64,000 nt of DNA from a virus (IMGVR_UViG_3300045988_178965:123649-187648), one strand, 5' to 3'. Positions 5,373 to 30,106 are shown, counted from the stretch's first letter. Translations and numbers: made by a program. The notes: a model not told the origin generated them from the letters alone.

Positions 5373-5387
5373 ACCTCTTAATTTACA

Positions 5388-6096: not shown

Positions 6097-7864
6097 CTAC
6101 ACCAATTTTTTCTTGAGTGTTATAGTTAACATGAGCTTTGAATCCCCATTTGCCCATATCAGACAAAGCACTCACACCAACTGCAACGGCTGCTTCATTA
6201 CCATAATAACCAACTGCTGCTGAAACTGCTGATTGTCCAGCATGATGCACTTGCATCAAAGCTGCTGCAGCATTTGCTGTTGCACCAATGGCATTTTGTC
6301 GATCTTCAACTTTATCAAATTTACGTTCCAAAGCAGCAATACTTTGAGTATTCTTCTCAACCGCACCATTCAAACGTTCAATGTTTTGTGTATTTACACC
6401 TACTTGGTTCAATGTTGCTTTGGTTTGATTAGACAGACCAACATTGTAAATTGTGTTCAAACCATTGACTGTTTTGGTAACAGCAATACCATCAACACCT
6501 GTTACAACAGCCTGTTTAGAATCAACAGTATAAATGCTTTGACCATTTGAACCTTTTGTTTCTGTCACAAAAGTATTTTGACCAGCTTTTACTTCTGTTT
6601 TAGCTTTTGCAATTTCAACGTCTTGCTGTTGATTTTTAGCTTTCAGGCCAACAATTTCAGCGTCTTGTTGTTCGTTTTTCACTTTCAAACCAACAATATC
6701 TGCTTTGTTAACATTTACTTGGTTCAATGTCGCTTTGGTTTCGTTTGACAAATCAACTACATAGTCTTGAACAGAATTTGTCAATTTACCCTTGTTAACA
6801 GAGACAGCATTTGAACCTGCTGAAACTGAAGCAGAATCATCTTTTGCAGACAATGTGTAAACGCTTTGGCCATTTGCACCTTTTGTTTCATTAATGGTGA
6901 CATTTTGACCAGCTTTTACTTCGGTTTTAGCTGCTTTTGCTGTTGCTGACAATTGAGCTACGTTTACAACATCGGTATCTTTTGTACCTGCTGAAACATT
7001 GGTAATTTGACGTGTAATACCATTTTCAACATCACCAACAGAAACAGAAGCATAAGTAGAGGTCCAAGGCAAATCTTTAACATTTTTAATTGGTGCATTC
7101 AATGGATTAGCACCAGAAACGCCTTTATCAACAGTTGCTTTTGAATATGAGCCAATAGCAGTTGAGCCTTCAACAGCTGCTTCTGAGTAAGAACCAATCG
7201 CTTGAGCTTCTTTTGCTGAAGCGTTTGCTAAGGTACCTAAAGCAAAAGCGCTTTCATTGGAAGTTTTGGCATAAGAACCAACAGCAATGGAATAATCGGA
7301 ATTTTCTGAAGTGTTAGCACCACGACCAAATGCAATGGATTGAATACCATGTGCTTGAGAATTTACTTGCAATGCTGTTGCATATTTTGCAGTTGCAACA
7401 GAACCATTACCAATTGCAATGGATGCTTCACCATCACCTTTTACACCTGAACCAATCGCAACAGAACCACTACCAGCTGCTGTTGCTTTTGAACCAATTG
7501 CAACAACTCGTGATGCTTCAGTAGAAGAGCGTTCACCAATCACGATTGATGTATCCGCATCTTTACCTGCTGTTGCTTGTGTACCAAAGACAATGGAAGA
7601 ACTACCATGTGATTCTGTACCTGAGCCGATAGCCATAGCATTCAGACCGTTTACAACAACGTCCTGACCAATTGCAACAGTCCCTTGGTTATTTGCCTGT
7701 ACACTGTTATCATGATTGAATGTATTTACACAAATGTTGCCTTCTACGCCACACTTTTGCATGGCGATTGTTTCGGCATCACCTGAATAATTAGTATGCG
7801 GATTTGTATCGGCAAAAACGTTAGTAGCTGCCAGAATAGACATCAGAATAATTGATTTTTTCAT
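6071..7864 (-). CDS. trimeric autotransporter adhesin (YadA-type)
   Basis: Signal peptide [18 protein letters not shown]. Many YadA head repeats (SVAIGxxxxAxGxxSIAIG-type). Duplicated stalk modules ([10 protein letters not shown]...G(A/S)NGQS(V/I)YT; [12 protein letters not shown]). C-terminal YadA anchor AAALMQV...[52 protein letters not shown]. Confidence 0.85.
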
Positions 7865-7928: not shown

Positions 7929-8696
7929 TTAAAGCAATAAAGATTTATCGCATTCTTCGATGACTTCGTATTCACATACACGAGCCTTAGAGCCATCATA
8001 ATCAATAGGCACTGATACGAAATTTCTTGGGTTGACGCGAAGTTTGACTAGTCGCCATTTACCATCAGGTGACTGTCCATAACCGCTACTGCGCAAATAT
8101 CGCAATGAGGCAGCATGGAGACCTTTAGAGCATGTTCTATTGTCATCGTCATCAATTTGGTTTCGCGGCATCTTAATCAGGGAACCAATTGAATTATTAA
8201 TGGTTCCTGTATAAGAATCGGTCCAGTCTTCACGAATAACCTTATAACAGATAACATAGCCATCTTTATCAATTTCGATATCATTGTGACCAATGAACGA
8301 ATAGAGATTGTTAATTGTTTTTCGTGACGGATTTTCTTCCAAATTCTCAAGGAATTTAAGGAATGATTCTGGGGCAATTTCATTGTCACCAATTCTACAG
8401 GCGCGACTTACAAATTCTGAAATTTCCTTTTTTACCAATTCAGGTAAATCAGAATCACAAAGTTTGCCTACCAAAATGTCAACTTTATATTTGCCAATAT
8501 AGACATAACGGACTTCTGAAATTTTCAAAAAGGTACGAGCCGCATTTTGGTTTTGATACCAGTCTCTAAGAATTTCATCAAAGTCATTCTTAATAACCGG
8601 AGAGTTGAAGAGTTTTGCTGTCAAAATATTTCCATTATTTTCAACAGCAGTTGCAACAATAAATTTGTCAGGATTGACTGTTACGTTGTAATTCAT
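7929..8696 (-). CDS. rIIB: rIIB-like protein
   Basis: FLENLEENPS, DIEIDKDGY, KMPRNQIDDDDNRTCSKGLH and NPRNFVSVPIDYDGSKARVCEYEVIEE match my recollection of T4 rIIB. It lies immediately downstream of the rIIA-like gene with a 29-nt overlap. Confidence 0.8.
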   Translation of the reverse strand: MNYNVTVNPDKFIVATAVENNGNILTAKLFNSPVIKNDFDEILRDWYQNQNAARTFLKISEVRYVYIGKYKVDILVGKLCDSDLPELVKKEISEFVSRACRIGDNEIAPESFLKFLENLEENPSRKTINNLYSFIGHNDIEIDKDGYVICYKVIREDWTDSYTGTINNSIGSLIKMPRNQIDDDDNRTCSKGLHAASLRYLRSSGYGQSPDGKWRLVKLRVNPRNFVSVPIDYDGSKARVCEYEVIEECDKSLLL

Positions 8697-10677
8697 TATC
8701 TAAACTTTCTATATATTTCAAGAAAACTGAATTTGGATCATTCCACATCGGATACATCTGATCAAGGACTTTCTCAATTTCCATTTTTATCAGAGTCGCC
8801 CCAATCACAATTAATGGATGACTATTATCACCTAGATCGATAGAATCTCCATTGTTAATTACCGAAAGTACAATATCTTTCATACGTTCTTTTAAAAGGG
8901 GCGATATAGTATATATAAAACTGCCCGGGCAAATTGATTCCGAACCAATTGTAGAGGAAAAATTGAATATAGTTTTACCTGGATTTTTACGCATTACAAA
9001 TTTAGCAGCTGCGATAGCTTTTTCTTTCTCTTCATCAGTCATAACTTTAAAAAGTTTCACATAATGTATCTCATGCGGATCTGATGAGTAGAAAGTAAAA
9101 ACATTTTTTAAATTGGAAACTTTAGCAGCAATAAAACCTTTAGGAGTTCCTCTACCAATATAGATATTTCTATCGGGAAAGATCTTTTTAAGAGCCTCCA
9201 TCTTTCTTACATAATGGACACTCTTTGTATTTGGATCCCCAACAATAAAAATATCATTCTCACCGATTTCATCCAATTCATAAACAATCTTATTGGAATT
9301 GTTTGAAGAGTAGAAAACATCTGCTGAGAATTTGATAGGATCACCCTTTTTGACAGGAATCGGTTCTCTATTCTTGCGGTTCAAATATTTTCGAATTTTA
9401 GGATCATCCGGAGTCAAGATATTACATTTCTTACCAATAGACTCCGCAAACTCCTTCAATTCTTTTTCAGGCATATCGATAAAGAATGTGACACCAGGAG
9501 GCATACAGCCTTTTGAAACTGTAATTGCACCATCATCAACCATACTTGTAGGGGCGAAATTTAAAGACTCCTCTTTAATTATCTCGATTAAATGCCCTAC
9601 CATGTATTTCTTGGTATCATTCCATACTCTACTACAATATTTACCGCCATATGTCTGATTCGAAAATGCCCACTTAACACCTTTAAGGAAACCAAAATTA
9701 AATTTATCAAATATGGTTTCAAAAATAGGTCTTGTATCTGACGTAAGCAATAATTTGTATATCCAAGGGGTAGACAAAATTTCTTCTCTAGTCATTGCTT
9801 TGACTTTTGAATCAATTTCGTTTATTTTTTCCTTAAAGATACGAGAAAGTGTTTGTCTTAAAGCATCATCATATGTAACGGTCTCTCTGGACAAGGAGAC
9901 TTTAACATCCTTAATTGGAACATCCATAATAAATATAGTATTGAACGCTATATGTAAATGAGATATTACATAATTCGGTCCACCCACTGACATTCTAAAT
10001 CTTGGAGAGCGATTAGTTTTAGATTTAATCAACCGTAAGCCGTCAACAACCTCAATAGCTTTAGCTGAAACATCTTCGCCATTTAAGTCCGTTAATTTTG
10101 GCAATGGCCAGAATCCGATTAATTCCTCATAACAAACAGGCTCTATTTTACCAACATCGTTCTGCTCAATAGGAATACGAATAGTAGTACCATTTGCGTC
10201 ATCTGTATCTACATTTTCCAGCATAACCTGATAGCTAGGAATGTCGTTATTTTTAGAGGTCATAATGACATTCTTCTTGCTATCTTTTACAGATGTAGCG
10301 ATGAAATAATCGGCATATGCTAACGGGCTTTTAGAGCCAATGCCAAAGCCGCCGATGCTATCATTACTGTCATTTTTAGTAGACTTAAAGAACGTAGTAT
10401 AGATATTTACCATATCATCATATGTCATTCCGACGCCATGATCTTTAATTTCGATATAGTATTCTACACCGTCTTTATGAATAGAAATTTCAACTGGGCC
10501 ATTGTATCCAGATTGACGATTAGCATCATGTGCATTTGCCACAATTTCACGAATCATAGATCTAAATGGATTTGCATACAAATCACCAAATAGACTTCTA
10601 AAAGTTTTTGAGGTTACTTCAATATTATATTTATTCTCAGCTGTTGTTTCAGTCTTATTTTCAGTTTCAATAATCAT
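8668..10677 (-). CDS. rIIA: rIIA-like protein (GHKL/HATPase_c N-terminal domain)
   Basis: MIIETE...LYANPFRSMIREIVANAHDA, IKDHGVGMT and SNDSIGGFGIGSKSPLAYADYF are Bergerat-fold motifs arranged as I recall for T4 rIIA. ATG 10677 is preceded by GGAG. Confidence 0.8.
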   Translation of the reverse strand: MIIETENKTETTAENKYNIEVTSKTFRSLFGDLYANPFRSMIREIVANAHDANRQSGYNGPVEISIHKDGVEYYIEIKDHGVGMTYDDMVNIYTTFFKSTKNDSNDSIGGFGIGSKSPLAYADYFIATSVKDSKKNVIMTSKNNDIPSYQVMLENVDTDDANGTTIRIPIEQNDVGKIEPVCYEELIGFWPLPKLTDLNGEDVSAKAIEVVDGLRLIKSKTNRSPRFRMSVGGPNYVISHLHIAFNTIFIMDVPIKDVKVSLSRETVTYDDALRQTLSRIFKEKINEIDSKVKAMTREEILSTPWIYKLLLTSDTRPIFETIFDKFNFGFLKGVKWAFSNQTYGGKYCSRVWNDTKKYMVGHLIEIIKEESLNFAPTSMVDDGAITVSKGCMPPGVTFFIDMPEKELKEFAESIGKKCNILTPDDPKIRKYLNRKNREPIPVKKGDPIKFSADVFYSSNNSNKIVYELDEIGENDIFIVGDPNTKSVHYVRKMEALKKIFPDRNIYIGRGTPKGFIAAKVSNLKNVFTFYSSDPHEIHYVKLFKVMTDEEKEKAIAAAKFVMRKNPGKTIFNFSSTIGSESICPGSFIYTISPLLKERMKDIVLSVINNGDSIDLGDNSHPLIVIGATLIKMEIEKVLDQMYPMWNDPNSVFLKYIESLDNELQRNSQS

Positions 10678-10710: not shown

Positions 10711-10747
10711 AAAATAAGATTAAGCGGACAGGAATATATCCTGCCCG
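10711..10747 (-). terminator. intrinsic terminator after the RNAP-A gene
   Basis: gcggacagga (10724-10733) / tcctgcccgc (10738-10747). This is a 10-bp stem whose single mismatch is a G.U pair only in the minus sense. It is followed (minus sense) by TTAATCTTATTTT. Confidence 0.65.
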
Positions 10748-10761
10748 CCGATTAACGCATC

Positions 10762-13700
10762 TTACAGAAAATCGATATCAATTTCCTTAGCTTCTGTCAC
10801 ATTGTTTTCAGAGCTCGAATCAACTTCTTCGATGCTAAGTTGACCAATACATTGATTGTATACATCAAAAGCAGGCTTAATCATTTTGCCTACGAATGTT
10901 TTGTCTACAATCAAATTGAACCACTTAGACACTTCAGGGTCTTTCAAGTCAATAGGCTCGCCATTGTTATCAACGGTTTGACCCTTATTATGCATACGCA
11001 GGAAATCACCAGTAAGCTTAATAAGGTTATGCTGATCGGCCCAAATAGCAATATTAATAATGGTCATAGCTGTTTCACGACTATATCCCATTTCATTCAC
11101 AATTGCCTCTACTACTTCTTTATGAACCGTTTGGTCAGAGCCTAATGTGCCCAACATGAATTTCTGATGTTGAGTTGCACCACCTTTAATATGCTTAATT
11201 GCATTGATAACGTAACGCTCATTGGTTTCAGTGTAGACATGGTCACACTCTTGAGCAAGTTTATCATTAAGTGGGATTTTTACAAACTCTTTGCCAGTTT
11301 TGCCGGAAATGGCACGATAAGCCAAATCGGAATCTTCATTCAGCAATGCCAAATAAAGCTCAATAAGCATACCGAACTGCCAAGAGTTATTAGTGCCGGG
11401 ACCCACAGCTTTCTTCGCATTGGCAGAGTTTGTAATTAAATCAATATAGCTTTCATCACCAGGACGTTTACAATAGGTCGGAGTATAATGCAACTTATAC
11501 TTTTTGGTCCAATCCAATTTCTTAATGCTGTCATATTCTGATTGCAAGAAATCTTCGTCCCATTGATACATCTTATCGGTAATGTTGCTAAGAGTGAACT
11601 CTTTCATCATTTGCTGAGCTTCTTCTGGCAATACAGTAATCTGTAGTAAGTCACCGTCAATATCAGAGTGGCTACCTTTGATTACATCTTTGCCAATCAA
11701 TGCACAATGCAAATTGGATTTGACATCCAGATAATCTTCTAATGCAAAGCCATATTCCTGTTTGAGATAAGTGTCAAACTTGTTTACGTCCCACAATTCT
11801 TTAATCAGCAACTGTGTTTTCCACAAAAACGGTGAACGCAATGTGAAAGCATAGAGCTTCTTAAAGGCCTGAACAATGCCTTGTTCAACCGGCAAATTCT
11901 TGGTTGGATAGACATATTCATGCAAATCGGTATAAATACGATTATTCAATACAACGACAACGCCATCAGGGACGTATACATCGTGCATCTGTTTCATATT
12001 TACGCCGCGCAATCGTGGTGTAATCATGGTTTGAATTAATGTCTGTCCTGAAATCTCTGAAGAATACAGCATAGACTTCAAAGATGCCATGTAATTGCCA
12101 TAAGCGCTTACACGATTTTGGTTGCTCTCATTACGACTCGGAATAATCCGGTAGTAATAAGGTTTACCAAGCAAAGCATTCTGAATAATCTTACAAACTT
12201 CAATCAGAATACCAGGATAAACATACTCGCCATTCGTTTGCTTACTACAGAACATACCCAAAGTTTTAGCATCTGGAATACGGACTAACGTATTTTGACG
12301 CTGTTCGCTTAAATTAATATAGAAGCCTTTATTAAAGTCTTCATCAAGAAGCTTAGAATACAATGGGAAGATAGAGCTATGTTCCAGAATCAAATCTTTT
12401 TCAGAGAAATGATTCTTTAAACTGCTTAATGTATAAACAGGTTTATGCTCAGCAGACACAAAACGGCGCGTCTTATCATTCAAACATTTCATCAACTCAA
12501 TTACAGCTGACTTTTCATCCGGATCAATACAATTGTCCAGAATATATTGTGCCAAACCGGAATCTTTTGTTTGAGAAATATAACGTAAAGCATTAAAGCT
12601 CATCTTTTGGTTTCGAACAACCGTAAAATGGCTACCAATTTCAGTATAGTTAATCTGAATCACACCATACAGACGAGTCTTAAACTCAACTTCCTTACCT
12701 TCACGAATCATCTTAAAGGTTACTTCCGGAATGGATTTAGCAGCAGCGTTAATTTCTTCCTCATCCATAGATGATAAAAGCTTATCGCCAGAGGCTGGAG
12801 TATAATAGCCATATTTCAATGCAAAAGCTGCTTGCATTAAACGTACAGTATTCTCTTTAGCCTTGATACTATTGACACCTGTAAAGATGTCAACTTCCAT
12901 TTCGAAATCATCGGAATAGATATGACCACAAGTCATCATGGTTTTGGTTACACCTTTCAGACCTGTATGAGAAGTGATTCGAGAATTGCCTACTTTGTAA
13001 TAGGCTACGAAATCAATTCGAGCAGAGTTGTTGTAACCATTCTGAGAAACTTTAGTTACCTCAATTTTGACAACATTATCTACTGCAATCGGACGACGAT
13101 CAAATACGCCCAATGTTACAGAGCCATTTCGCGCTGTATATGTTTCGCCTTCTTTAACGAGAATTTCATCGAATTCCGTTTCTTTATGGCGATTCATAAA
13201 TACAATTTGGTTACCAATACGGCGATTGACCTCTAAGTCACCGCCAACTTGATGGTAACTCTCAAAGTCAATATCCTGATAGACAACGATTGCATCTAAG
13301 CCACCATTATCCAAAGGAATATGATCACCGTTTTCGTCGAAAGCAAATGAACCATCAGGGTTAATGGCTGCGTCCTCAATAAACAAAGGTTTATCGGGTT
13401 GCAACACACCAAAATGGTTGCCATTTACGTGAGTTTTCAAACGAGCAGGCAACGCTGAGGCTCTAGGAAAGATAGACGAGAATCCAACAATACGATCTTC
13501 ATTATCATATTCAAAGCCAAATCCAGCGCAAGAAATTTCTGCTTCACCATTAGAGACAACAATTTTGTTGCTTTCAGAAAGCATAGTTTCTGAACCTGGC
13601 ATCAGGTTAAAGCAGTTAGCCATAGCTGTAATGGCTTCCTTGTCGGGGCTTGTAATTACACGTTGATGAACCAAATCACCAATAGGCAAATCACGATTCT

Positions 13701-14202
13701 TATAAACCAAAGATGTTCCAGTATTAGTGCTGTAAGGCGCCCACAAAACAAGAAGATTTGATGATTTCAGATTCGCATTGAAAGCATTCGGGCTTACATA
13801 TTCAACGAAGTTCGTAATCAGCTTAATGTCACGACGAATATAAGTCGTAAAGATTTCGTTGTTCTTCAGAGCATCTTCAAATCGTTCAGCCAGGAAGAAG
13901 TACAACATTTCAAAGTGATTGATCACTTCAATTGGTGCCCGTTTATTAATATGGCGCGAGCAAAATGCAAAATGAGGCCAATGATTCTTTGGATTGAAGA
14001 ATGATTCAGGAATAACAAATTCTGTTTCAACCGTTTTATCATTAATCACATTGATGACTTTAAAGCCGAATGTATCAGACTTAAGTTCAAACTCAATTCG
14101 ACCCTCAGCAGTCAAATGTTCACGGAAAATCGAAAACACTTCTGCTGGTGTAGAGTTTTTGTTGATTACAGGAATTTGTCCATTTGAAATTCTTAAATGC
14201 AT
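10762..14202 (-). CDS. single-chain two-barrel RNA polymerase candidate (fused beta-like + beta'-like DPBB; YonO/crAss gp66-type), copy A
   Basis: Beta-type motif SRITSHTGLKGVTK...TGVNSIKAKENTVRLMQAAF (12943-12984 onward). Beta'-type motifs TLRSPFLWKTQ and GSHSDIDGDLLQI, with DIDGD encoded at 11650-11664. ATG at 14202. Confidence 0.65.
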   Translation of the reverse strand: MHLRISNGQIPVINKNSTPAEVFSIFREHLTAEGRIEFELKSDTFGFKVINVINDKTVETEFVIPESFFNPKNHWPHFAFCSRHINKRAPIEVINHFEMLYFFLAERFEDALKNNEIFTTYIRRDIKLITNFVEYVSPNAFNANLKSSNLLVLWAPYSTNTGTSLVYKNRDLPIGDLVHQRVITSPDKEAITAMANCFNLMPGSETMLSESNKIVVSNGEAEISCAGFGFEYDNEDRIVGFSSIFPRASALPARLKTHVNGNHFGVLQPDKPLFIEDAAINPDGSFAFDENGDHIPLDNGGLDAIVVYQDIDFESYHQVGGDLEVNRRIGNQIVFMNRHKETEFDEILVKEGETYTARNGSVTLGVFDRRPIAVDNVVKIEVTKVSQNGYNNSARIDFVAYYKVGNSRITSHTGLKGVTKTMMTCGHIYSDDFEMEVDIFTGVNSIKAKENTVRLMQAAFALKYGYYTPASGDKLLSSMDEEEINAAAKSIPEVTFKMIREGKEVEFKTRLYGVIQINYTEIGSHFTVVRNQKMSFNALRYISQTKDSGLAQYILDNCIDPDEKSAVIELMKCLNDKTRRFVSAEHKPVYTLSSLKNHFSEKDLILEHSSIFPLYSKLLDEDFNKGFYINLSEQRQNTLVRIPDAKTLGMFCSKQTNGEYVYPGILIEVCKIIQNALLGKPYYYRIIPSRNESNQNRVSAYGNYMASLKSMLYSSEISGQTLIQTMITPRLRGVNMKQMHDVYVPDGVVVVLNNRIYTDLHEYVYPTKNLPVEQGIVQAFKKLYAFTLRSPFLWKTQLLIKELWDVNKFDTYLKQEYGFALEDYLDVKSNLHCALIGKDVIKGSHSDIDGDLLQITVLPEEAQQMMKEFTLSNITDKMYQWDEDFLQSEYDSIKKLDWTKKYKLHYTPTYCKRPGDESYIDLITNSANAKKAVGPGTNNSWQFGMLIELYLALLNEDSDLAYRAISGKTGKEFVKIPLNDKLAQECDHVYTETNERYVINAIKHIKGGATQHQKFMLGTLGSDQTVHKEVVEAIVNEMGYSRETAMTIINIAIWADQHNLIKLTGDFLRMHNKGQTVDNNGEPIDLKDPEVSKWFNLIVDKTFVGKMIKPAFDVYNQCIGQLSIEEVDSSSENNVTEAKEIDIDFL

Positions 14203-14239: not shown

Positions 14240-14269
14240 AAAAGACCGACACTCAATCGAGTGCCGGTC
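14240..14269 (-). terminator. GTGTCGGT/U-tract hairpin element, copy 1
   Basis: Plus strand AAAAGACCGACACTC-aatc-GAGTGCCGGTC. 11-bp stem with one A.C (plus sense) that is G.U in the minus sense. It sits between the stop at 14273 and the RNAP-A start at 14202. Confidence 0.6.
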
Positions 14270-14272
14270 AGC

Positions 14273-14392
14273 TTATTTTTCCTTCATTTTATCGATCCGA
14301 TTTTGAATGGATTTCATTACCCATTTCAAACGGCCCGTAAGAAACTTTATCTTTGCGTAGCTATAGCTTCTTCTTCCTCTATTTGAACGCAT
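14273..14392 (-). CDS. possible small basic protein (39 aa)
   Basis: Not in the track (<60 aa). ATG 14392 lies 1 nt after the Bfd-like stop (TAAAATG). Translation MRSNRGRRSYSYAKIKFLTGRLKWVMKSIQNRIDKMKEK. The stop is followed directly by hairpin copy 1. Confidence 0.3.
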   Translation of the reverse strand: MRSNRGRRSYSYAKIKFLTGRLKWVMKSIQNRIDKMKEK

Positions 14393-14393
14393 T

Positions 14394-14573
14394 TTATTTC
14401 CCTTCCTTTGCTGCTTCTTTGTGCTTTGAAATCAATGAGCAAACCATTTCGTGACAACAGCCACAACAAGTAGTCGCGCCGGTCTCTTTTTGTATTGTTT
14501 CAAGTTCTGCACCATTAACAGCCATAGCGGTAATAGTTTTATCATTAATATTATTGCAAATACAAATAACCAT
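14394..14573 (-). CDS. Bfd-like [2Fe-2S] mini-ferredoxin (59 aa)
   Basis: Not in the track (59 aa). Translation MVICICNNINDKTITAMAVNGAELETIQKETGATTCCGCCHEMVCSLISKHKEAAKEGK. CxCNxIxDKxI ... GxxxCGxC matches E. coli Bfd (MYVCLCNGISDKKI...GNQCGKC). RBS AAGGAAAGG. Confidence 0.75.
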   Translation of the reverse strand: MVICICNNINDKTITAMAVNGAELETIQKETGATTCCGCCHEMVCSLISKHKEAAKEGK

Positions 14574-14601
14574 AAATAACCTTTCCTTAATTAATTATTA
14601 A

Positions 14602-14638
14602 CAAAAGAATTGGCCCCGACACCTTTCGATGCGGGGCC
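14602..14638 (-). terminator. GTGTCGG hairpin element, copy 2
   Basis: ggccccg(acac) (14612-) / cggggcc (-14638). A-tract CAAAAGAA at 14602-14609. Lies upstream of the Bfd-like start. A T-tract on both sides makes it potentially bidirectional. Confidence 0.5.
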
Positions 14639-14728
14639 TTTTCTATCACTAATAAAGGAGTATTAGGGTGCCGTCTTTCCGTCGTCCCTGCGATTGCAAA
14701 CCGTCGCCTACAAGCTGTCAAGAAAGGT

Positions 14729-14737
14729 ATTATAGCA
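14729..14737 (-). promoter_or_regulatory. possible extended -10 promoter element (TGCTATAAT, minus sense)
   Basis: Plus-strand attatagca is minus-sense TGnTATAAT. No good -35. It lies inside the ORF-free GC-rich island. Confidence 0.25.
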
Positions 14738-15070
14738 GGATTTTTCGGAGTCATGGATGATCCTGAACCATGTGCATAAAACTTTATACACTTAATAATG
14801 GGGGGCCCCGATCCAAATACCTTATTGCCGAAAGGAGGTCAATAAGAAATATGGTATTCGGTCTGCGGGGCGGGGAAAGGCTACAGGCGATACTGATATA
14901 TCCGACAGTATATAAAAATAGTCTGATTTATCGCCTGCCACTTTGGGCATATCGAGTAGTCAACACGAACAGAGCCACTGTTATTTAACGACTTACGATT
15001 AATGCGCCAAGTATTGTTCCTCCGGTCACTCCGACCAGAACACACTTGCCACACAAACTTGTTTTATTAA

Positions 15071-15454
15071 TCAGAAGGCATTTTCGCCATTCAAGAATAC
15101 GCCGGTAATTTTAAATTCGCGTTTGCCAAATTCTTCGTCTTCGATTTCGATTGTGCCAACATCATAAATTGTATCAGATTCAGCAAGGCGGCGAATATGC
15201 GAAGGAAGTTCAGCAATACGTTTACCTTCTTTTGTCAGAAGAATATTACAACCCAAATCTTTCAAGTCTTCGTCATCCATATTGGCAATAGACTTGATAT
15301 CTTCGGAGGTTAAGACCATGCGGTCAACTTGGGCACATTCCAATTCTGCAAATTCACGGAATTCTTTATCAGTTGGGGCTGAAAATGTCAGTTCCTGTGC
15401 AATGGCCAAACCAAGTTTAGCATATGCTTTATACAATACATTAGGTGATTTCAT
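15071..15454 (-). CDS. hypothetical acidic protein
   Basis: ATG 15454 preceded by AAAGG. 127 aa, no motif recognised. Confidence 0.65.
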   Translation of the reverse strand: MKSPNVLYKAYAKLGLAIAQELTFSAPTDKEFREFAELECAQVDRMVLTSEDIKSIANMDDEDLKDLGCNILLTKEGKRIAELPSHIRRLAESDTIYDVGTIEIEDEEFGKREFKITGVFLNGENAF

Positions 15455-15471
15455 TGTTTAACCTTTAAAAT

Positions 15472-15936
15472 TTATTTTGATTTAGATTTCAGTTTATAAA
15501 ACACATGCTTACCAATACGGTGCGGTTTAACAGCTCGTGGCGCTGGTCGTTTTCCATTAGAGGAAAAGAAAATAGCTCCCCGGGTATTGTCAGCATGATG
15601 TTTCGCCTTATGAGCTAAATAAACTTCTTGTGCAATTTTTTCAGTCTCTTTATCGTAGCCGGTTTTGGAACGTAGCTTTTTATTACGATACCATTGAAAC
15701 TGTCCACGTTGGGCAATAACACCATTTACCGTATTCGGAAATTCTTTGTGTTTTACACGATTCATGATTACGTGAGCAACTGCTTTCTTTCCTGCTATGG
15801 ATTCGCCGCGAGCTTCGTTATGAATAGCAGTCGCTAAAGCTTTTACTTCGGAAGAAGCTGACTTCTGTTTATTCTCGGCTTTTACATTAAAACTTGCAGC
15901 CAGTAAAATAGCTACAATAAGAAATCGTTTATTCAT
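15472..15936 (-). CDS. secreted SleB-type cell-wall hydrolase (Hydrolase_2 family)
   Basis: AIHNEARGESIAGKKAVAHVIMNRVKHKEFPNTVNGVIAQRGQFQW is the SleB/CwlJ-family signature. The start is reassigned to ATG 15936 (GGAGAG RBS), giving signal peptide MNKRFLIVAILLAASFNVKA. Confidence 0.75.
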   Translation of the reverse strand: MNKRFLIVAILLAASFNVKAENKQKSASSEVKALATAIHNEARGESIAGKKAVAHVIMNRVKHKEFPNTVNGVIAQRGQFQWYRNKKLRSKTGYDKETEKIAQEVYLAHKAKHHADNTRGAIFFSSNGKRPAPRAVKPHRIGKHVFYKLKSKSK

Positions 15937-16117
15937 CTTTGGGCTCTCCATATACAACAATATAGCTCCCACCTGAATGCTGCTCAAGAGCTACAGTCAC
16001 ATTGTTAAACTCATTCTTGATGTTATTTATAACAGTGATAAGTTCATCTGCACTGTAATAAACATCTTCGGAAAGAAACTGTTCAAGGAGACCAATTTCT
16101 TTTGATTTATTAGGCAT
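15929..16117 (-). CDS. hypothetical protein
   Basis: ATG 16117 preceded by GAGG. An 8-nt overlap with the next gene suggests translational coupling. Confidence 0.55.
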   Translation of the reverse strand: MPNKSKEIGLLEQFLSEDVYYSADELITVINNIKNEFNNVTVALEQHSGGSYIVVYGEPKDE

Positions 16118-16258
16118 AATAAGCCGCCTCTTATTGTTTGTAGATTTAAATCCCTACAAGATTATTTTAATTTTCTATTTAACGGAAGGCAAAAAGTGCT
16201 AATAATTTCCGTACTGATAATACAATTAAAAATAGCATAATTGCCTCCGTTATATTAG

Positions 16259-16657
16259 TTACGAACCTTCTGCAATATCAATAATTGCAGATATTTCTTT
16301 CATGATGCGGACATAATACTTAAGCCGTCCAAGAAAGCGTTTTGTAGCTTCACAATCAGGATAGATATTAGTAATAATATCGCTAACACTGTACAAACGA
16401 ATATGATGTTCATATGCTTGATAATAATAATCAAGCAAAATCTTTTCATTGATTCTCGTGTTTTCTTCAATATCACCTTTATGGCCGCAGATAATGCTAG
16501 GACGAATCAAGTCTTTAACCTTGATATCTTCCTTAATGCCAACTGCGCGTCTATTTAACATTCTGATTTTATTGAATTTCATATCTCTGAGAAGCTCTTC
16601 AAATGAATGAATATGCTTAAAGAACTTCTCATTGAATGCACGATTTACAGACTTCAT
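16259..16657 (-). CDS. hypothetical protein
   Basis: The ATG at 16657 overlaps the upstream stop (TAATG). Confidence 0.6.
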   Translation of the reverse strand: MKSVNRAFNEKFFKHIHSFEELLRDMKFNKIRMLNRRAVGIKEDIKVKDLIRPSIICGHKGDIEENTRINEKILLDYYYQAYEHHIRLYSVSDIITNIYPDCEATKRFLGRLKYYVRIMKEISAIIDIAEGS

Positions 16658-17004
16658 TACTCTGATGCCTTTAAATCAGGCAATTGTTCCAAAGCTGTAA
16701 CCGCTTTTACAGCTTTCGCTTCTTTTGGTTTGGAAGCTTCAATTGCCTTATTCATGTGCTGAAACTGCATATCTTCATAGGCAGATTTTGTAATTGCACG
16801 GCACAAAACCTTTGGCTCTTTGCCAGGAACGAGGTCGTTTACACATTCTTCATAAACGGCGCCACCTTTAGAATAGCTGAGCTGAATCCAATGGTCCGTA
16901 TTCAAATAGATGCGTGATGGATCATCGATTTTGTTGCAGGCCGAGAGGCTAGAAATAGCAATAGCGGCTGCCAATACAGCGGATACTTTTTTATTTACTT
17001 GCAT
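16657..17004 (-). CDS. lipoprotein
   Basis: Signal peptide plus lipobox: AAIAISSLSAC. ATG 17004 preceded by GGAG. Confidence 0.7.
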   Translation of the reverse strand: MQVNKKVSAVLAAAIAISSLSACNKIDDPSRIYLNTDHWIQLSYSKGGAVYEECVNDLVPGKEPKVLCRAITKSAYEDMQFQHMNKAIEASKPKEAKAVKAVTALEQLPDLKASE

Positions 17005-17016
17005 AATTTACTCCAT

Positions 17017-17520
17017 TTAAAGTTGATTACGGTAATATTCTCTGACTTCCATCAGAGCCTTACCAAGAAGATTGCGGCCACGCCAATTTCGACGGTCAAG
17101 GATTTCATTACTCATCCAATCCAATTTGACGCCCCAAATTGCATCATACGGCGAACCTTCAACCAATTCGAGGTTATTGGTCCGTAAAAGGATTTCTTTC
17201 AGTGTAGGATTTTGGAATTTGATTTTCAGAATATCAACCATAACTCCATAACGCTTTTCGTCCCATACCTTAGGATCGAAATTTTGTACCGCCCGGCCTA
17301 CCCTTTTGACTTCTGACGCTGATCTAGCCTGAACAATGAGTCTAATTTTGCTCTCATCGCCAAATGTAATAGCTTTCTCAATCATAAACGCCTGCTCAGC
17401 AGTCTTTACATTGTAGCCTTTATACACAAGTGGGCTAAAGTAAAAATTACTAAACGGTGCACCGCCGGTAAAGAACGTTACCATTTTATCAGTATAACGC
17501 ATATTGTTTTTAAGTTGCAC
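17017..17520 (-). CDS. NADAR (YbiA/DUF1768) family protein
   Basis: FFTGGAPFSNFYFSP, TAEQAFMIEKA and SPYDAIWGV match NADAR landmarks. The start is ambiguous: TTG 17532, GTG 17520 after GGAG, or ATG 17499. Confidence 0.75.
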   Translation of the reverse strand: MQLKNNMRYTDKMVTFFTGGAPFSNFYFSPLVYKGYNVKTAEQAFMIEKAITFGDESKIRLIVQARSASEVKRVGRAVQNFDPKVWDEKRYGVMVDILKIKFQNPTLKEILLRTNNLELVEGSPYDAIWGVKLDWMSNEILDRRNWRGRNLLGKALMEVREYYRNQL

Positions 17521-17555
17521 AATTTGCTCCAATGTTTATTAATGAACGGCAAAGA

Positions 17556-17777
17556 CTATTGTTTCTTGTGCTTTCCTGTGATTAATAATCCTACTGCAGC
17601 AATACTGAAGATAGGGAACAATACTGGCCACATTAAACATCCTAGGAAAGCAAACAGTATAACCATAAACTTTTCAAAGGGTTCACTTCCAGATAAATCA
17701 ATGTCTTTGACTCGTATCACAAAACATAGAGCCAAAAAGATTACGCAGCCAATTAAAATGATAAACAATGGGTCCAT
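17556..17777 (-). CDS. small membrane protein
   Basis: ATG preceded by AGGAG. Two hydrophobic helices. Confidence 0.6.
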   Translation of the reverse strand: MDPLFIILIGCVIFLALCFVIRVKDIDLSGSEPFEKFMVILFAFLGCLMWPVLFPIFSIAAVGLLITGKHKKQ

Positions 17778-17805
17778 TTTGATCTCCTAAAAATTTAATA
17801 TTCAT

Positions 17806-17827
17806 TTTACCGACAATTTGCCGACAC
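17806..17827 (-). repeat. GTGTCGG element, copy 3 (two direct half-sites, no hairpin)
   Basis: Plus strand TTTTACCGACAATTTGCCGACAC, immediately after the stop at 17828. CCGACA occurs twice in direct orientation, with no complementary arm. Confidence 0.5.
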
Positions 17828-18076
17828 TTAATCTCTTATGATTTTCTTAATTCCAAATACCAGTGGCTTAAATAAGCCATATGAAATGATCACAGTAAGT
17901 AATACCGGCCAAGCTACAGAAGCCAACATAGACAACCAGATATATTTTTCGATCAGGTCTTCAACATCTTCGCAGCCTTCTTTATTCGCTAATCCATTTT
18001 TATAGGAAACAATAAGTATCCCAATGAAAACAACAAATAAAATAGCTACGATCAGCAGATATATTTTTAAAGCCAT
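17828..18076 (-). CDS. small membrane protein
   Basis: ATG 18076 preceded by AAGG. Two TM-like segments. Confidence 0.6.
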   Translation of the reverse strand: MALKIYLLIVAILFVVFIGILIVSYKNGLANKEGCEDVEDLIEKYIWLSMLASVAWPVLLTVIISYGLFKPLVFGIKKIIRD

Positions 18077-18278
18077 TTTATGTACCTTATTTTAATCTCC
18101 GTTAATAATGAATGCCTGCGTTTATACTCCGCAGGCAAGAGTCAGACACATTCACAGGAGCAGGTCGTCATCCCAAGTCAGGAATAGCATTTCAGCTACT
18201 AGCCTTTGTGACTAAATCATCGGCTCCATTCAACATCTAGTGTTGAATCATACTAGGAAGGAGCTTTTATTACTCCAT

Positions 18279-18309
18279 AAATAAACCGACACCAATATAA
18301 TGGCGTCGG
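18279..18309 (-). terminator. GTGTCGGT/U-tract hairpin element, copy 4
   Basis: ccgacacc (18286-18293) / ggcgtcgg (18302-18309). The one A.C in the plus sense is G.U in the minus sense. It follows the stop at 18324. The minus-sense tail is TTTATTTAT. Confidence 0.6.
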
Positions 18310-18323
18310 CTATATTTAAGGTT

Positions 18324-18602
18324 TTAGTAAAGTGAGAATTTTTCGATCAAATAGACCACAAACTTTCCAGTATGGATCGTTGCAATATGGCCTAAAATGA
18401 CGGAAATAACAAACAATAGTACATTAAACGGCCCATTGTTTCTCAATTTGGAAAAAGCTTTGATGTTGAAAACGCTTTTATGCAAATTCGAAAGAATGAA
18501 ACCGATATATACAGCCAGGAAAATAACATACAGTATGCCTGTGGGGTTATTCACTACGGCATTGTAAATGAAATAATCCCATATATTTGTAAAAACAAAC
18601 AT
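18324..18602 (-). CDS. small membrane protein
   Basis: ATG 18602 preceded by AAGGA. Hydrophobic throughout. Confidence 0.6.
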   Translation of the reverse strand: MFVFTNIWDYFIYNAVVNNPTGILYVIFLAVYIGFILSNLHKSVFNIKAFSKLRNNGPFNVLLFVISVILGHIATIHTGKFVVYLIEKFSLY

Positions 18603-18623
18603 GATAAATCCTTATTAGTTGTC

Positions 18624-18788: not shown

Positions 18789-18793
18789 AGGGG

Positions 18794-19252: not shown

Positions 19253-19304
19253 TTAAAGCCTCCATAGGGCCTTATATAAAGACCCTATAACTTATTATTT
19301 GTAA

Positions 19305-20060: not shown

Positions 20061-20087
20061 GATAACTCCATATATAATATTTACCAC

Positions 20088-26624: not shown

Positions 26625-29600
26625 TTACAGCATGTCGATAGCTTCGTCCATATCAACATCAACTTCATGATAAGACTCAGCTTCAACAGTCTCACCATTA
26701 GCCAAGGCTTCAGCCTCAGCCAATTTAACTTCCGCTACAACCTGAATTTGGGCAATCACTTCACGGCTTAAAGCTTTCAAGATGAAGCTAAATGGAGACT
26801 TGCCGTCCATATCCAAGAGGGCATTAACACCTTTGACATCATCCAGACCAAAGAAGAATGATGTGTTATAAATCTCGGATACATCCTTAGTGTACACATC
26901 AAAGTGTACATTCTTCCAGGTTGCGGTATGAGCCATGCGGACTGCATTGGTTTTATTCCAACGGTAACCTTGCTGACCGCGGCTACGTTTGTCCTCTTCG
27001 AACAGTTCTACAAATGTCTTGGCAATTTCAAACGCCATAGAATCATCCTGAATGAACATCAGTTCGAATGCTTTTTCAAACGCCTCAGTCATGCAGTCAA
27101 TGTCAGTTTCTTTATTGCGAAGGTTCAGATATTCGCAGAAACGCACCATGCCGTTTGAGTGTTTCATGTTCTCAACGACTTCTTTTTGCAACAAGATACC
27201 CATAGCATCAATAGCCAAGTTGGCCATGTCACTATAACCCAGTTTGTTGCGGATCAGATGTGTCAGAGTAATGAGATTATTAGTCTCACTGCCCACACCT
27301 GTCTTAGCCGCAACGATTTCCTCTACCGCTGGTTGAACGTCTTCTTTTCCCCATACCATAACGGATTTCTCACCAATCTCCTTGGTATTCAGAGAAGATA
27401 ACTCATCTTCAACATAAGAGAGTTGCTGTTTGGCAGAGTTGCAGGCCAACAGCTTAGACTCGCTCCATTGCTCTTGGCCTTCATAACCTTTGGCCCAGAA
27501 CAAGGTGAGGCGGTCGCCGTCAGCATCGTCCCTATTGGCCATATGAGAAAGGGCATCAACAAAGACTACTGATTCGCAGATGAAGCGATTCAGCTCCAAT
27601 TCTGCTTCAGAGTCAAAAGACATCAGGGTTTTAACCTTAGCTTCATAGAGGCGGAAGTTATTTTCCATCAAGATTGGAAACTTAATAGCACCCACTTCGC
27701 CTTTCTTAGCAGCCTCTTTGTATTGGCGGTCAGCGGTAATAACCTTAAAGCCGCTTTCAAAGTGATAGCTAACTGGCAGGCTACGACCTTTTGGCAAGCT
27801 GAATTTCAAGCCCTTGTGAGAGCCGAAAGTTTCCTCGATAGCCAGCAGATGTTTGGCATGAGTTTTAACTACTCCTGCAGCTTCCCAAGTTTTAGTGCCA
27901 CGGGTTTTGGCCATCAGCACAATAGAGGCAAGTGACTTGAAGAAATCACCACCAGTAAATTGCAAACCGGAGATATGATCTCCAGTGATTGTTTCCTGTT
28001 TGTCCCAGAATGATGCACCTGGGAATACGAAACTGTGATCACCGGCAATCACCTCGAAGCCACGAGGCATATTTAACAGACCAGGGAAACGACCACAGCC
28101 GTTGAATAAATTAACCAGGAATGTCTTCATCACTGATTGTGAAGATTCATCACCAACAAGTGTGGTGTATTTAACTTGTTCAACTGACAATGAACCATTG
28201 CCAGCAAACATGACAGCAAATCTATCCGCCCACCATGCACGAGTCATAGCCAAGAATTCGTTAGCGGTGCAAGACCAATCTACGTTTTTGGCAGCCGCAA
28301 CAGCTTTAGCTGTTTTACGACCAGTACGGCCAGAAATGAAGGACTTAAATAGTCCCTCACCATATTGACGAATCATTTGATCCGCCAAAAGAACACCGCC
28401 TTCAGCAGAATGAGATACTGCTTCTACAACACCAGCACGCTTCATCTCCAGCAAGCGAACCACTGGAGAGTAAGTAGTATCACCAGCCTTTAACTCAGAC
28501 AGAAGTTCATTCATCAGTGTCATTTCAGGAGACTCAATCTCAATCCCCTCGATCTTATCATTGATGCTTACTTCAGTACCAACGCGACGGTGGCCTTGCA
28601 AAGTGTAAAAGTCGGAGACATAAATCTCTTCTTCGATAACCGCAAAGCTGTACACCAGACCATCTACATTTACGGTCTTAGTGTTCATTGTAATCGCAGT
28701 ATTCGCTGTTTCTCGGAAGTCTGCATCATTCAACAAACGAAGCATAAATTGACTTAAATCGCCACCCATAATTGCATGGGCGACTCCGACCATTTTGGAC
28801 TTCAGCATTGGGCTGATAATATCTACACCCAAATAGTCCACCAAAGCGTCGATGTCGCGGACATTTGTAACAACGCCTTTGGCATGGTGGAACGATACAA
28901 TACGCATAGTGCCGTACTGCTGGACAAGTTCCTTGCGGCCATAACAAGCACCGCCAGCCAAATTCATAGCCAAAGGATGATCTTTGATATCAGCCAAGCT
29001 ATTAACTTTCTCACCATTCTCATTGGTTACAGATAAGAGCACAGCCACCTTGCGAACACCAATGGATACTTTGGTGTCTAAATCCGGATTCAGAATGCCC
29101 CTTGCAATTGCCTTTTTGCAATCATACACCGAAATGTATTTACCAGATTCCTCTGGGTGATTGACGGCAACCATGGTATCAGCCGCCTTGCGAGAGATAA
29201 ACATAGCGTCACCAACTGGCATACCTAATTTCCAGCTGGTGTCAGGACTAGTATTCAGCAAATCGCCTTGCTGAACCTTAACACCTTTAGGAGCAGGCTT
29301 CTCGGACTTAACTACTACAACACCTCCAGGTTTGCGCTTAAGGGCGTCCACCAATTTTACGCCTTCTGTGCCAATACCGGCCAGCCAGTCGATCAAGACG
29401 TCGATGCTTTCGGTAACGGATACAATTCCGTCTTTGTAAGAAACGAAACCGTGACGTGCAACTGTTTCACGGCCAAGCGGGGAATTTACCAAAGATGTAG
29501 CCAAAGTTCCTCTCTGTGCAACTACGCGAACAGAGCCCTTTGACGGACGACGAATATTAATCTCAACCTTGCCCACAATAGGCAGGGATTCACCAGCCTT

Positions 29601-30038
29601 AATCTTGCAAATAGTACGAGCCCATTCTTTAAGGTTAGTTAATTCCTCCTGAGTGGGAGTTTTGCCGGCCTTCACCGACTCCACTCTTTGTACCATAGTT
29701 GGCACACCTTCCACTTCAAAACTATAACTCATTTCATTCTCCTTAGTTTCATTCAAAACGATAGCCTCTACTTCTGCATTGGCCCAAGACAGGGCCTCAG
29801 AACGAGAACCCACTTCCTTGATTGCTACAACAGCCCCGTCTTTAACAACGGCCACGATTTCAGGACGCATAGCAGCGGCTTTGCTATTGCTCAGGGCAAC
29901 AACCTCAATACCAGCTGCGGTACGAATACCAGCTTTGATATGAGCTTTATGCTCGTATTGTTCTACAGCAGCTTCATAAGCTTTGGCAGCAGCAGCGTTT
30001 ACAGTAGTAGTGAAAGTAGAGAATTTAATAGTTGACAT
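26625..30038 (-). CDS. single-chain two-barrel RNA polymerase candidate (YonO/crAss gp66-type), copy B
   Basis: Beta-type motif RIVSFHHAKGVVTNV...ISPMLKSKMVGVAHAIMGG (~28860-28895 onward). Beta'-type motifs GAIKFPILMEN and HMANRDDADGDRLTLFW, with DADGD encoded at 27513-27527. Start reassigned to ATG 30038 (AAAGGAAATCATT-ATG). Confidence 0.65.
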   Translation of the reverse strand: MSTIKFSTFTTTVNAAAAKAYEAAVEQYEHKAHIKAGIRTAAGIEVVALSNSKAAAMRPEIVAVVKDGAVVAIKEVGSRSEALSWANAEVEAIVLNETKENEMSYSFEVEGVPTMVQRVESVKAGKTPTQEELTNLKEWARTICKIKAGESLPIVGKVEINIRRPSKGSVRVVAQRGTLATSLVNSPLGRETVARHGFVSYKDGIVSVTESIDVLIDWLAGIGTEGVKLVDALKRKPGGVVVVKSEKPAPKGVKVQQGDLLNTSPDTSWKLGMPVGDAMFISRKAADTMVAVNHPEESGKYISVYDCKKAIARGILNPDLDTKVSIGVRKVAVLLSVTNENGEKVNSLADIKDHPLAMNLAGGACYGRKELVQQYGTMRIVSFHHAKGVVTNVRDIDALVDYLGVDIISPMLKSKMVGVAHAIMGGDLSQFMLRLLNDADFRETANTAITMNTKTVNVDGLVYSFAVIEEEIYVSDFYTLQGHRRVGTEVSINDKIEGIEIESPEMTLMNELLSELKAGDTTYSPVVRLLEMKRAGVVEAVSHSAEGGVLLADQMIRQYGEGLFKSFISGRTGRKTAKAVAAAKNVDWSCTANEFLAMTRAWWADRFAVMFAGNGSLSVEQVKYTTLVGDESSQSVMKTFLVNLFNGCGRFPGLLNMPRGFEVIAGDHSFVFPGASFWDKQETITGDHISGLQFTGGDFFKSLASIVLMAKTRGTKTWEAAGVVKTHAKHLLAIEETFGSHKGLKFSLPKGRSLPVSYHFESGFKVITADRQYKEAAKKGEVGAIKFPILMENNFRLYEAKVKTLMSFDSEAELELNRFICESVVFVDALSHMANRDDADGDRLTLFWAKGYEGQEQWSESKLLACNSAKQQLSYVEDELSSLNTKEIGEKSVMVWGKEDVQPAVEEIVAAKTGVGSETNNLITLTHLIRNKLGYSDMANLAIDAMGILLQKEVVENMKHSNGMVRFCEYLNLRNKETDIDCMTEAFEKAFELMFIQDDSMAFEIAKTFVELFEEDKRSRGQQGYRWNKTNAVRMAHTATWKNVHFDVYTKDVSEIYNTSFFFGLDDVKGVNALLDMDGKSPFSFILKALSREVIAQIQVVAEVKLAEAEALANGETVEAESYHEVDVDMDEAIDML

Positions 30039-30069
30039 AATGATTTCCTTTTTAAAGATAGCCGTATAT

Positions 30070-30106
30070 AAAAGAACCATATAAGAGACCCGGCTATATC
30101 TCTTAT
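30070..30106 (-). terminator. hairpin + U-tract upstream of RNAP-B (distant relative of the repeat family)
   Basis: ataagaga (30081-30088) / tctcttat (30099-30106). The flanking AAAAGAACC is identical to the A-tract part of copies 9 and 10, but CCGACAC is missing. Confidence 0.45.

Follow-up and report, generated by a model that had tools for sequence, protein, structure and literature searches.

Does a single open reading frame (ORF) of a phage carry both of the catalytic barrels that cellular RNA polymerases (RNAPs) hold in their beta and beta' subunits, and what would such an enzyme transcribe? The question is raised by a gene, here called copy A, in a 64,000-nucleotide (nt) stretch of viral DNA (IMGVR_UViG_3300045988_178965:123649-187648; the window). 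A sequence-only reading of the window had proposed that copy A encodes a fused beta/beta'-type polypeptide with two double-psi beta-barrels, an architecture known from YonO of SPbeta. This proposal was supported by the structural matches of the predicted model, by invariant catalytic residues and by a conserved element resembling a bridge helix, and copy A is very probably a single-chain beta/beta'-type two-barrel RNAP of a family that is new by sequence and distinct from YonO.

Predicted fold and conserved residues of copy A

The predicted reading frame proved to be intact on the minus strand (Table 1), and all of the peptides quoted from it were found in its translation: SRITSHTGLKGVTK at residues 407 to 420 and TGVNSIKAKENTVRLMQAAF at residues 441 to 460 for the beta-type group, and TLRSPFLWKTQ at residues 787 to 797 and GSHSDIDGDLLQI at residues 843 to 855 for the second group. 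Coordinate arithmetic placed D847 to D851 at 11664..11650, as had been stated for DIDGD. The two motif groups are separated by 439 residues, in agreement with the earlier figure of about 440, and the protein is 37% longer than YonO of SPbeta, which has 839 amino acids (aa), close to the 40% that had been estimated.

An AlphaFold2 model of copy A, built from a 21-sequence alignment, had a mean predicted local distance difference test score (pLDDT) of 84.4 and a predicted template modeling score (pTM) of 0.79. When this model was compared to the PDB with Foldseek, matches 1 to 24 were all second-largest RNAP subunits (beta/Rpb2 type; E values from 2.3e-6 to 2.7e-4), drawn from human and yeast Pol III, Pol I, the tobacco plastid-encoded polymerase (PEP), Thermus, E. 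coli, archaea and African swine fever virus (ASFV), with 7d58_B the best of them (E 2.3e-6). These were followed by a bacterial beta' subunit (5vo8_D, 2.7e-4) and then by QDE-1 (7y7t_A, E 2.4e-3, about 840 columns). In BFVD, two fragments from Acinetobacter phage vB_AbaM_ME3 (ME3) led the matches (2.4e-45 and 1.2e-9) and were followed by full-length matches of about 1,200 columns to unnamed viral proteins and to A0A8S5SD80_1, an uncultured siphovirus protein that bears the name "minor tail protein" and is a tail-protein-fused phage RNAP (query TM-score, TMq, 0.41 over 1210 columns). Lower in the BFVD results were crAss-like virion proteins (cr50_1, E 2e-5), poxvirus and giant-virus Rpb2 homologues, and P23-45 gp64 (A7XX94; E 7.8e-3, a weak match). 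The significant PDB matches were all RNAPs, with no unrelated fold and no non-polymerase family among them, and the named viral matches were nearly all RNAP related. The structural comparison that the sequence-only reading had proposed recovered beta, beta', QDE-1 and crAss-like virion proteins. Copy A is highly likely to adopt the RNAP two-barrel fold and to keep its active site intact, the fold being judged from a predicted structure.

Homologues of copy A were then used to gauge conservation. A word-indexed search returned 20 clusters. With an exhaustive profile search and a cutoff of E ≤ 1e-3, the number rose to 184 (clustered at 50% identity), of which 96 had E ≤ 1e-30. Every named member of the family carries the label "hypothetical." Copy A shares 26.5% identity over 95% of its length with the ME3 protein (two records, 234.9 kb) and has a partial match in the unannotated phage record PBAB25. 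An identical protein is present on contigs of 118,794 and 187,648 bp (samples ERR589435 and SAMEA2738078), and relatives lie on IMG/VR contigs of 170 to 186 kb where these are near full length. For the window DNA itself, a collection of 50,697 phage records held nothing similar at close range. Three shorter family hits of 762 to 789 aa (P0161, P0162 and P0164) had no significant Pfam match, and P0161, the only one of these searched in the phage collection, had no match there.

In an alignment of 61 diverse full-length members, with identities of 15 to 50% and down to about 15% compared to the query, fifteen positions were invariant: R254, R408, G414, K416, K447, R789, P791, W794, D847, D849, G850, D851, K930, T937 and K1003. 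Near-invariant positions were G321, G733, K737 (58/61), Q738 (56/61), P745 and H1004 (55/61). The DxDxD triad of the beta'-type barrel (D847, D849 and D851) is present in all 61 members, and the basic residues of the beta-type barrel (R408, K416 and K447) are likewise without exception; two conserved basic residues in the beta-type barrel are a trait of the superfamily (PMC7824862). Since homologues occur in about 184 clusters and the motif residues are invariant columns of the alignment, the motifs go beyond chance.

The same residues were compared to E. coli RpoB and RpoC motifs read from locus L048. The beta-type motif is collinear with GRHGNKGVISK..PSRMN of E. coli beta, RITSHTGLKGVTK-(16)-VDIFTGVNSIKAKEN in copy A standing against GRHGNKGVISK-(15)-VDIVLNPLGVPSRMN. 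Further on, G..MKQ corresponds to GKQGRFRQ and RSPFLW to RAPTLH, and SDIDGDLLQITVLPEEAQ pairs with the DxDGD..EAQ site of E. coli beta', so that the motifs of copy A have the same order and similar spacing as those of E. coli beta and beta'. Because they are both invariant in the alignment and collinear with RpoB and RpoC, the motif residues first picked out from the sequence are the catalytic-type invariants of the family, whose catalytic fold is well supported. A profile comparison (hhalign) with the single E. coli RpoB sequence placed the beta motif instead at residues 197 to 276 (PGSETML..PARLKTH; E 0.69), and this placement was rejected. The motif was set at residues 405 to 460 because residue identity and spacing match there and because this segment holds the invariant K416 and K447.

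The protein begins with a family-specific region, which contains the invariant R254 and has no match in any profile library searched (Pfam, PHROGs and NCBIfam). In the beta-type barrel, a first strand group, GG(D/E)LE, at residues 320 to 324 is followed by a beta-rich insert of about 75 aa and then by the catalytic half, R408-I-T-S-H-T-G414-L-K416-G-V-T-K420 ... V-D438-I-F-T-G-V-N-S-I-K447-A-K449-E-N451. In the AlphaFold model, a beta-rich block at residues 322 to 441 ends in this motif, and a mixed block at residues 730 to 857 ends in DxDGD. A 37-residue helix of the model (residues 919 to 955) carries the invariant K930 and T937, and its AK..VG..T motif co-aligns with AKTGVGSETNN of a second ORF of the window, described below; its place after DxDGD, as in beta', suggests that it may be the bridge helix. 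The KH..GG motif with K1003 and H1004 is possibly an element like the trigger loop, since it presumably resembles FHIGG of the beta' trigger loop. In the mechanism that we propose, the N-terminal half would form the beta-type barrel, with R408, K416 and K447 holding the phosphates of the nucleoside triphosphate (NTP) and the 3' end of the RNA; the C-terminal half would form the beta'-type barrel, with D847, D849 and D851 binding the catalytic Mg2+ ions; and the bridge-like helix and the KH..GG element would come after it.

Interrupted relatives and a second candidate polymerase gene

The window copy of the gene is without interruption, unlike many of its relatives, which are annotated as fragments. 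When the ends of these fragments were mapped on the query, three recurrent break points were obtained: after R789-x-P791 (between RxP and F), after D849 inside the triad (between DxD and GD), and after AKxAVGx at 935/936 (between AKxAVGx and GT). At the second of these, N-terminal fragments finish in ...SDVD and C-terminal ones open with ..GDH.... The interrupted relatives are L001 (ME3), P0046/P0048/P0051/P0055, P0003/P0004/P0010/P0014 and P0050/P0053. Homing introns and inteins target the most conserved parts of essential genes, and the interruptions at the motifs mark the active site independently.

In ME3, the gene is annotated as two "hypothetical" ORFs, gp152 and gp154, with an endonuclease gene, gp153, between them (locus L001, 10296-11632). 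The frame is open upstream of the annotated gp154 start (SLWRTQLVRVKIW...) and follows directly on the end of gp152 (...VRNPS), so the annotated start lies too far downstream; the gap between the two matches the group I intron model RF00028 (51 bits, the gathering score; E 9e-10). The predicted exon junction is RNPS|LWRTQ. The split versions in relatives are intron interruptions and not subunits, as seen in ME3, where the exons continue in frame and the gap matches RF00028. A borderline match to group II intron domains D1 to D4 (32.2 bits; gathering score, 32) was seen at 12669-12826 of locus L024, within another polymerase homologue, which exceeds the window gene in length by about 320 bp.

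The window contains a second candidate of the same kind, copy B, the existence of which had been implied by the designation of the first as a copy. The two are remote paralogues and not plain duplicates: no similarity between them was found by BLASTP. Copy B, which carries the motifs RIVSFHHAKGVV, VDIISPMLKSK, RDDADGD, AKTGVGSETNN and MKHSNG, has 81 close homologues of about 1137 aa and had no match in the profile libraries. With a shallow copy A profile, hhalign gave a weak match to copy B (E 0.003), and with the 61-member copy A profile against the copy B family it gave a probability of 93.8 and an E value of 1.7e-7 over 881 columns. Five motifs co-aligned in this comparison (copy A first): RITSHTGLKGV with RIVSFHHAKGV, VDIFTGVNSIKAK with VDIISPMLKSK, SDIDGD with DDADGD, AKKAVGPGTNN with AKTGVGSETNN, and AIKHIKGG with NMKHSNG. 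It is this co-alignment that identifies copy B as a remote paralogue of copy A. The AlphaFold model of copy B was unusable (pLDDT 41, from a shallow alignment).

Copy B was found only in a close clade of contigs of about 170 to 188 kb, and none was detected in ME3 by tblastn or by a hidden Markov model (HMM) search of all ORFs of at least 400 aa. ME3 gp187 (1183 aa) was considered as a counterpart and rejected, since it looks like a tail fibre. ME3 has only the copy A type of RNAP, which indicates that across the wider lineage this type serves as the core polymerase, the window phage having a second, diverged enzyme besides.

Genome setting and signals

The guanine-plus-cytosine content of the window ranges from 30 to 46%, and its GC skew changes sign near 31 to 32 kb. 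To the left of about 31 kb, the genes are nearly all on the minus strand, small and mostly of no known function; they include copies A and B, rIIA and rIIB, a cell-wall hydrolase, a YadA-like adhesin and an AAA ATPase. To the right of about 36.6 kb, the genes are on the plus strand, among them those for a large terminase that carries a LAGLIDADG insertion, for the portal and for the major head protein. This layout puts copy A on the non-structural arm, across from the terminase-portal-capsid module.

The adjacency of rIIA and rIIB to copy A, on which the sequence-only reading had remarked, is real in the window and is kept in near-identical contigs, but it is missing in two relatives, of 46% and 27% identity, and in ME3, where rII lies at 83 to 86 kb and the polymerase at 222 to 227 kb. 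The rII neighbourhood is not conserved and therefore carries no functional weight. What all of the contexts examined share is that the polymerase gene stands among co-directional small non-structural genes.

Table 1. Positions of the polymerase candidates, their parts and adjacent features in the window
Feature	Position	Strand	Remarks
Copy A, single-chain two-barrel RNAP candidate	10762..14202	-	Complete 1146-aa ORF, ATG start, uninterrupted
N-terminal region, residues 1-300	13303..14202	-	Family specific; conserved PGSE..K and PAR254LKTH motifs
Beta-type barrel region, residues ~300-460	12823..13305	-	Invariant residues, predicted strands, Foldseek; limits inferred
Core beta-type motif R408..K420 (RITSHTGLKGVTK)	12943..12981	-	ORF translation and family alignments
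Beta'-type barrel region, residues ~729-860	11623..12018	-	G733..K737-Q738, R789-S-P791-F-L-W794, S846-D847-I-D849-G850-D851
DIDGD, predicted Mg2+-binding triad D847/D849/D851	11650..11664	-	Invariant, 61/61; relatives interrupted inside motif
Long helix, residues 919-955	11338..11448	-	Carries A929-K930-x-x-V-G934-x-x-T937; proposed bridge helix
I-K1003-H1004-x-x-G-G motif	11179..11199	-	K1003 invariant, H1004 in 55/61; co-aligns with copy B MKHSNG
Terminator-like hairpin GGCGGGCAGGA-TATAT-TCCTGTCCGCT	10723..10749	-	13 nt past stop codon of copy A
Upstream hairpin GACCGGCACTC-GATT-GAGTGTCGGTC, then TTTT	14240..14269	-	38 nt before ATG of copy A; hairpin 14269-14244
rIIA	8668-10677	-	PHROG 6e-56; immediately downstream of copy A
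rIIB	7929-8696	-	PHROG 3.5e-53; same strand as copy A
Copy B, second two-barrel RNAP candidate	26625..30080	-	1151 aa; likely start M15, giving 26625-30038, 1137 aa

Hairpins flank copy A on both sides (Table 1), and the upstream one is the final member of a series of repeated intergenic signals. The word TGTCGGTNWTTT occurs 14 times compared to 2.7 expected, and 13 of these copies are on the minus strand, all within 14240-26533 and all between the two polymerase genes (for example, at 14240-14269, 25017-25028 and 26522-26533). In most cases the repeat forms the 3' arm of a CCGRCA...TGTCGGT hairpin, behind which come T's and (A/G)TGG; it lies in intergenic DNA 27 to 204 nt before the next start. 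The exact word was not enriched in the two relatives examined, L009 and L010; in L009, the 46%-identical relative, a cognate form, CGRCAC-loop-GTGTCGA-TTTT-GATTAA, is found in the array of small genes (1650-5564). This conservation of the hairpin sequence across diverged phages suggests that it is specifically recognized, and it could serve as a terminator, a promoter or a processing site. A very basic 39-aa ORF (MRSNRGRRSYSYAKIKFLTGRLKWVMKSIQNRIDKMKEK; 14273-14392, minus strand) precedes the hairpin and lies immediately upstream of the polymerase gene. Its first 21 bases are found again at the corresponding position in close relatives and, in L009, at a different one (21375).

A scan for sigma-70 promoters around the polymerase gene and the divergent region found no more sites than in shuffled sequence. 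A near-consensus sigma-70 promoter (TTGACT-17 nt-TATAAT) was seen at 35273-35438 on the minus strand, upstream of a 287-aa minus-strand gene (34409-35272), and at least some genes thus look host transcribed. Where gene orientation and GC skew switch, a 496-bp stretch without ORFs (31083-31578) is A+C rich and nearly G free, with repeated CACAC and TCACA words, and could be an origin or control region.

Other genes of the window were noted in passing. The large terminase subunit (41222-44473, plus strand; 1083 aa) has a LAGLIDADG homing-endonuclease domain at residues 536 to 626, which suggests an intein. The YadA-like trimeric autotransporter adhesin (6071-7864, minus strand) has a head, a stalk and a membrane anchor, and beside it (5388-5876, minus strand) the contig gene table gives a faint BamE match; the same YadA-like/BamE-like pair in the 46%-identical relative (L009, 18023-20325) points to a Gram-negative host. 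In relatives, genes close to the polymerase have Pfam matches to Tad2-like, NADAR and cREC_REC families (L009, 9647-9910; L007, 6701-7186 and 19944-20258), which are linked to phage-host conflict.

Proposed role and comparison with known systems

The data on copy A show the reading frame, catalytic residues conserved throughout the family and a predicted fold that matches large RNAP subunits; polymerase activity, the DNA template, when the enzyme acts, and which promoter and terminator signals it uses are inferred. The enzyme would be DNA dependent, would be made after infection and not carried in the virion, and would transcribe middle or late genes of the phage without the host polymerase. 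Among its counterparts, YonO is reported to transcribe the late genes of SPbeta without host RNAP (PMC5467207), and gp64 does so for the early and middle genes of P23-45 (10.1101/2022.12.01.518664). We consider it likely that copy A is a DNA-dependent transcriptase, and for the full statement, which includes the non-virion role in middle or late transcription, we estimate a probability of about 0.6.

A number of results weigh against this reading. Scans of copy A with Pfam (E ≤ 10), PHROGs and NCBIfam gave no match above noise, and searches of PDB sequences with phmmer and hmmsearch, using the single sequence and 21- and 59-sequence profiles, gave no match. With hhalign, the single E. coli RpoB sequence gave no significant match, and the single RpoC sequence gave only a local match at DxDGD (E 0.066), which is not significant alone. 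When the 61-member profile was compared to proteobacterial alignments assembled from 80 genome loci (67 RpoB and 74 RpoC sequences), the DxDGD..EAQ site of RpoC was matched with an E value of 0.0083, and residues 301 to 342 were matched to beta 797 to 835, the first barrel strands, with an E value of 0.16, both at the expected places and neither of them significant. As these scores are not significant, the family is separate by sequence, and what assigns it to the RNAPs is its predicted fold together with the identity and the order of its motifs. On the structural side, the Foldseek TM-scores are 0.2 to 0.4 and the E values moderate (low TM-scores are expected for the partial superposition of multidomain proteins), and it is presumed that the barrels face each other and bring the Asp triad next to the Lys and Arg residues. 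No promoter for the copy A enzyme was identified, the data do not separate a DNA from an RNA template or a virion from a non-virion location, and the nearest full-length structural neighbours of copy A are virion-delivered enzymes.

This last result speaks for an alternative that we think unlikely, in which copy A would be packaged in the virion and injected to transcribe the earliest genes, as are crAss-like gp66, P23-45 gp96 and the phiKZ virion RNAP, with copy B acting after infection. The best full-length BFVD neighbours, A0A8S5SD80_1 and crAss-like cr50_1, are virion- or tail-associated single-chain RNAPs; the window has two paralogous RNAPs, and paired RNAPs go with a division between virion and non-virion enzymes in phiKZ-like jumbo phages and in P23-45 (PMC7824862; 10.1101/2022.12.01.518664). 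The gene of copy A, however, is neither in nor beside the structural module, has no fused structural domain and ends a co-directional array of small early-type genes, while ME3 has only the copy A type, and a sole phage RNAP is more often a non-virion enzyme. These points on the virion role are not decisive.

It is less probable still that copy A, although two barreled, is something other than a DNA-dependent transcriptase, such as a QDE-1-like RNA-dependent RNA polymerase (RdRP), a primase-like enzyme, or a maker of small RNAs or nucleotides in phage-host conflict. QDE-1 is among the Foldseek matches (E 2.4e-3, 834 columns), YonO-type proteins are often annotated "RNA-dependent RNA polymerase," and the fold alone leaves the template unfixed. 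Cellular DNA-dependent beta subunits, however, score about 1,000-fold better than QDE-1, there is no PF05183 (RdRP) signal, and the gene belongs to the conserved core of phages of about 170 to 240 kb, in which it is single copy. The characterized phage members have all been reported to be DNA transcriptases, namely, YonO (PMC5467207), gp66 (10.1101/2020.03.07.982082), and gp64 and gp96 (10.1101/2022.12.01.518664). A non-catalytic or chance look-alike that carries DxDGD and GxKG strings, for which one could cite the silence of the profile libraries and the chance DxDxD strings in several large ME3 proteins, is close to refuted by motif residues that are invariant in 61 members at 15 to 50% identity, by a fold that matches RNAP subunits only, by introns that target the motifs, and by a paralogue that keeps five motifs in the same order.

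More tentatively, copy A may represent an unrecognized single-chain RNAP lineage that keeps more of the beta/beta' apparatus than YonO does (GxKGV, (K/R)xN, the insert in the first barrel, a bridge helix and KH..GG, in about 1150 residues) and that together with copy B would run a host-independent transcription cascade, in which the 13 hairpins (CCGRCA-loop-TGTCGGT-TTTT) would be enzyme-specific promoters or terminators.

Few single-chain two-barrel RNAPs have been characterized, and they are used to reason about the origin and the minimum size of the multisubunit transcription machine. The copy A family enlarges this set by about 184 clusters (50% identity), all "hypothetical" and undetected by profile libraries, with one cultivable representative, ME3. 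If the enzyme is active, ME3-like phages and related human-associated phages of about 185 kb would need no host enzyme to transcribe at least a part of the genome, which would bear on rifampicin-phage combinations and on the annotation of "dark" genes in large phages; structural biology and biotechnology would also gain a compact beta/beta'-like enzyme to study. No paper naming the family was found in a literature search of incomplete coverage, and it may have been described elsewhere. The ME3 genome announcement makes no mention of an RNA polymerase, and a survey of 224 jumbo phages assigned ME3 to group 2.2, for which it listed no phage RNAP of this superfamily; the double-barrel RNAPs that it reports are confined to group 1 and to two phages of group 3 (PMC7824862).

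The characterized single-chain two-barrel RNAPs of phages are YonO (PMC5467207), crAss gp66 (10.1101/2020.03.07.982082), and P23-45 gp96 and gp64 (10.1101/2022.12.01.518664). Copy A is like YonO in that a single phage-encoded polypeptide holds both barrels, and in some SPbeta-like phages introns or nucleases likewise interrupt the YonO gene. Copy A is not a member of the YonO family: PF05183 (YonO/RdRP-like) had no match in copy A in the Pfam scan, hhalign of the family profile against YonO found nothing (probability 0.2%), and by these comparisons the two families are not related in sequence. The "YonO-like" RNAP gp99 of 0305phi8-36, annotated as PF05183-like, is likewise unrelated by sequence (probability 0.3%, nothing found), though the structural genes of ME3 are annotated as 0305phi8-36-like. 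The proteins also differ in size (1146 compared to 839 aa), the copy A motifs HxGxKGVxK...VDI...K.K.N and DxDGD..VxP..EAQ are much closer to those of cellular enzymes, and copy A appears to keep the beta-rich insert of the first barrel and KH..GG after the bridge helix.

With phi14:2 gp66 and P23-45 gp96, copy A shares the single-chain two-barrel architecture and the DxDxD site, and relatives of these two classes are its best full-length BFVD matches; it has no sequence similarity to either. They are parts of giant virion proteins delivered with the DNA, gp96 being a tail-tape-measure-fused RNAP of 5002 aa (10.1101/2022.12.01.518664), whereas copy A is free standing, has 1146 aa and is encoded on the non-structural arm. 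P23-45 gp64, a free-standing post-infection single-chain RNAP comes from a phage with two such polymerases, an arrangement that is the closest analogue to the two paralogues of the window, but its structural match is weak, it has no sequence similarity, and the phage lineages and hosts are unrelated. Jumbo phages of the phiKZ/AR9 type have split beta and beta' polypeptides (PMC7598289). Compared to cellular beta and beta', copy A is one chain of about 40% of their combined size (1146 compared to 1342 + 1407 aa), with both barrels in one ORF, no Pfam RNAP domains and no sign of an architecture dependent on alpha, omega or sigma, and it retains GxKGV..K, VDI....(K/R).N, KQ, RxPxL(H/W), DxDGD..EAQ and the putative bridge helix in the same order. 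The copy A family is new by sequence and falls within a known kind of enzyme, the single-chain two-barrel RNAP.

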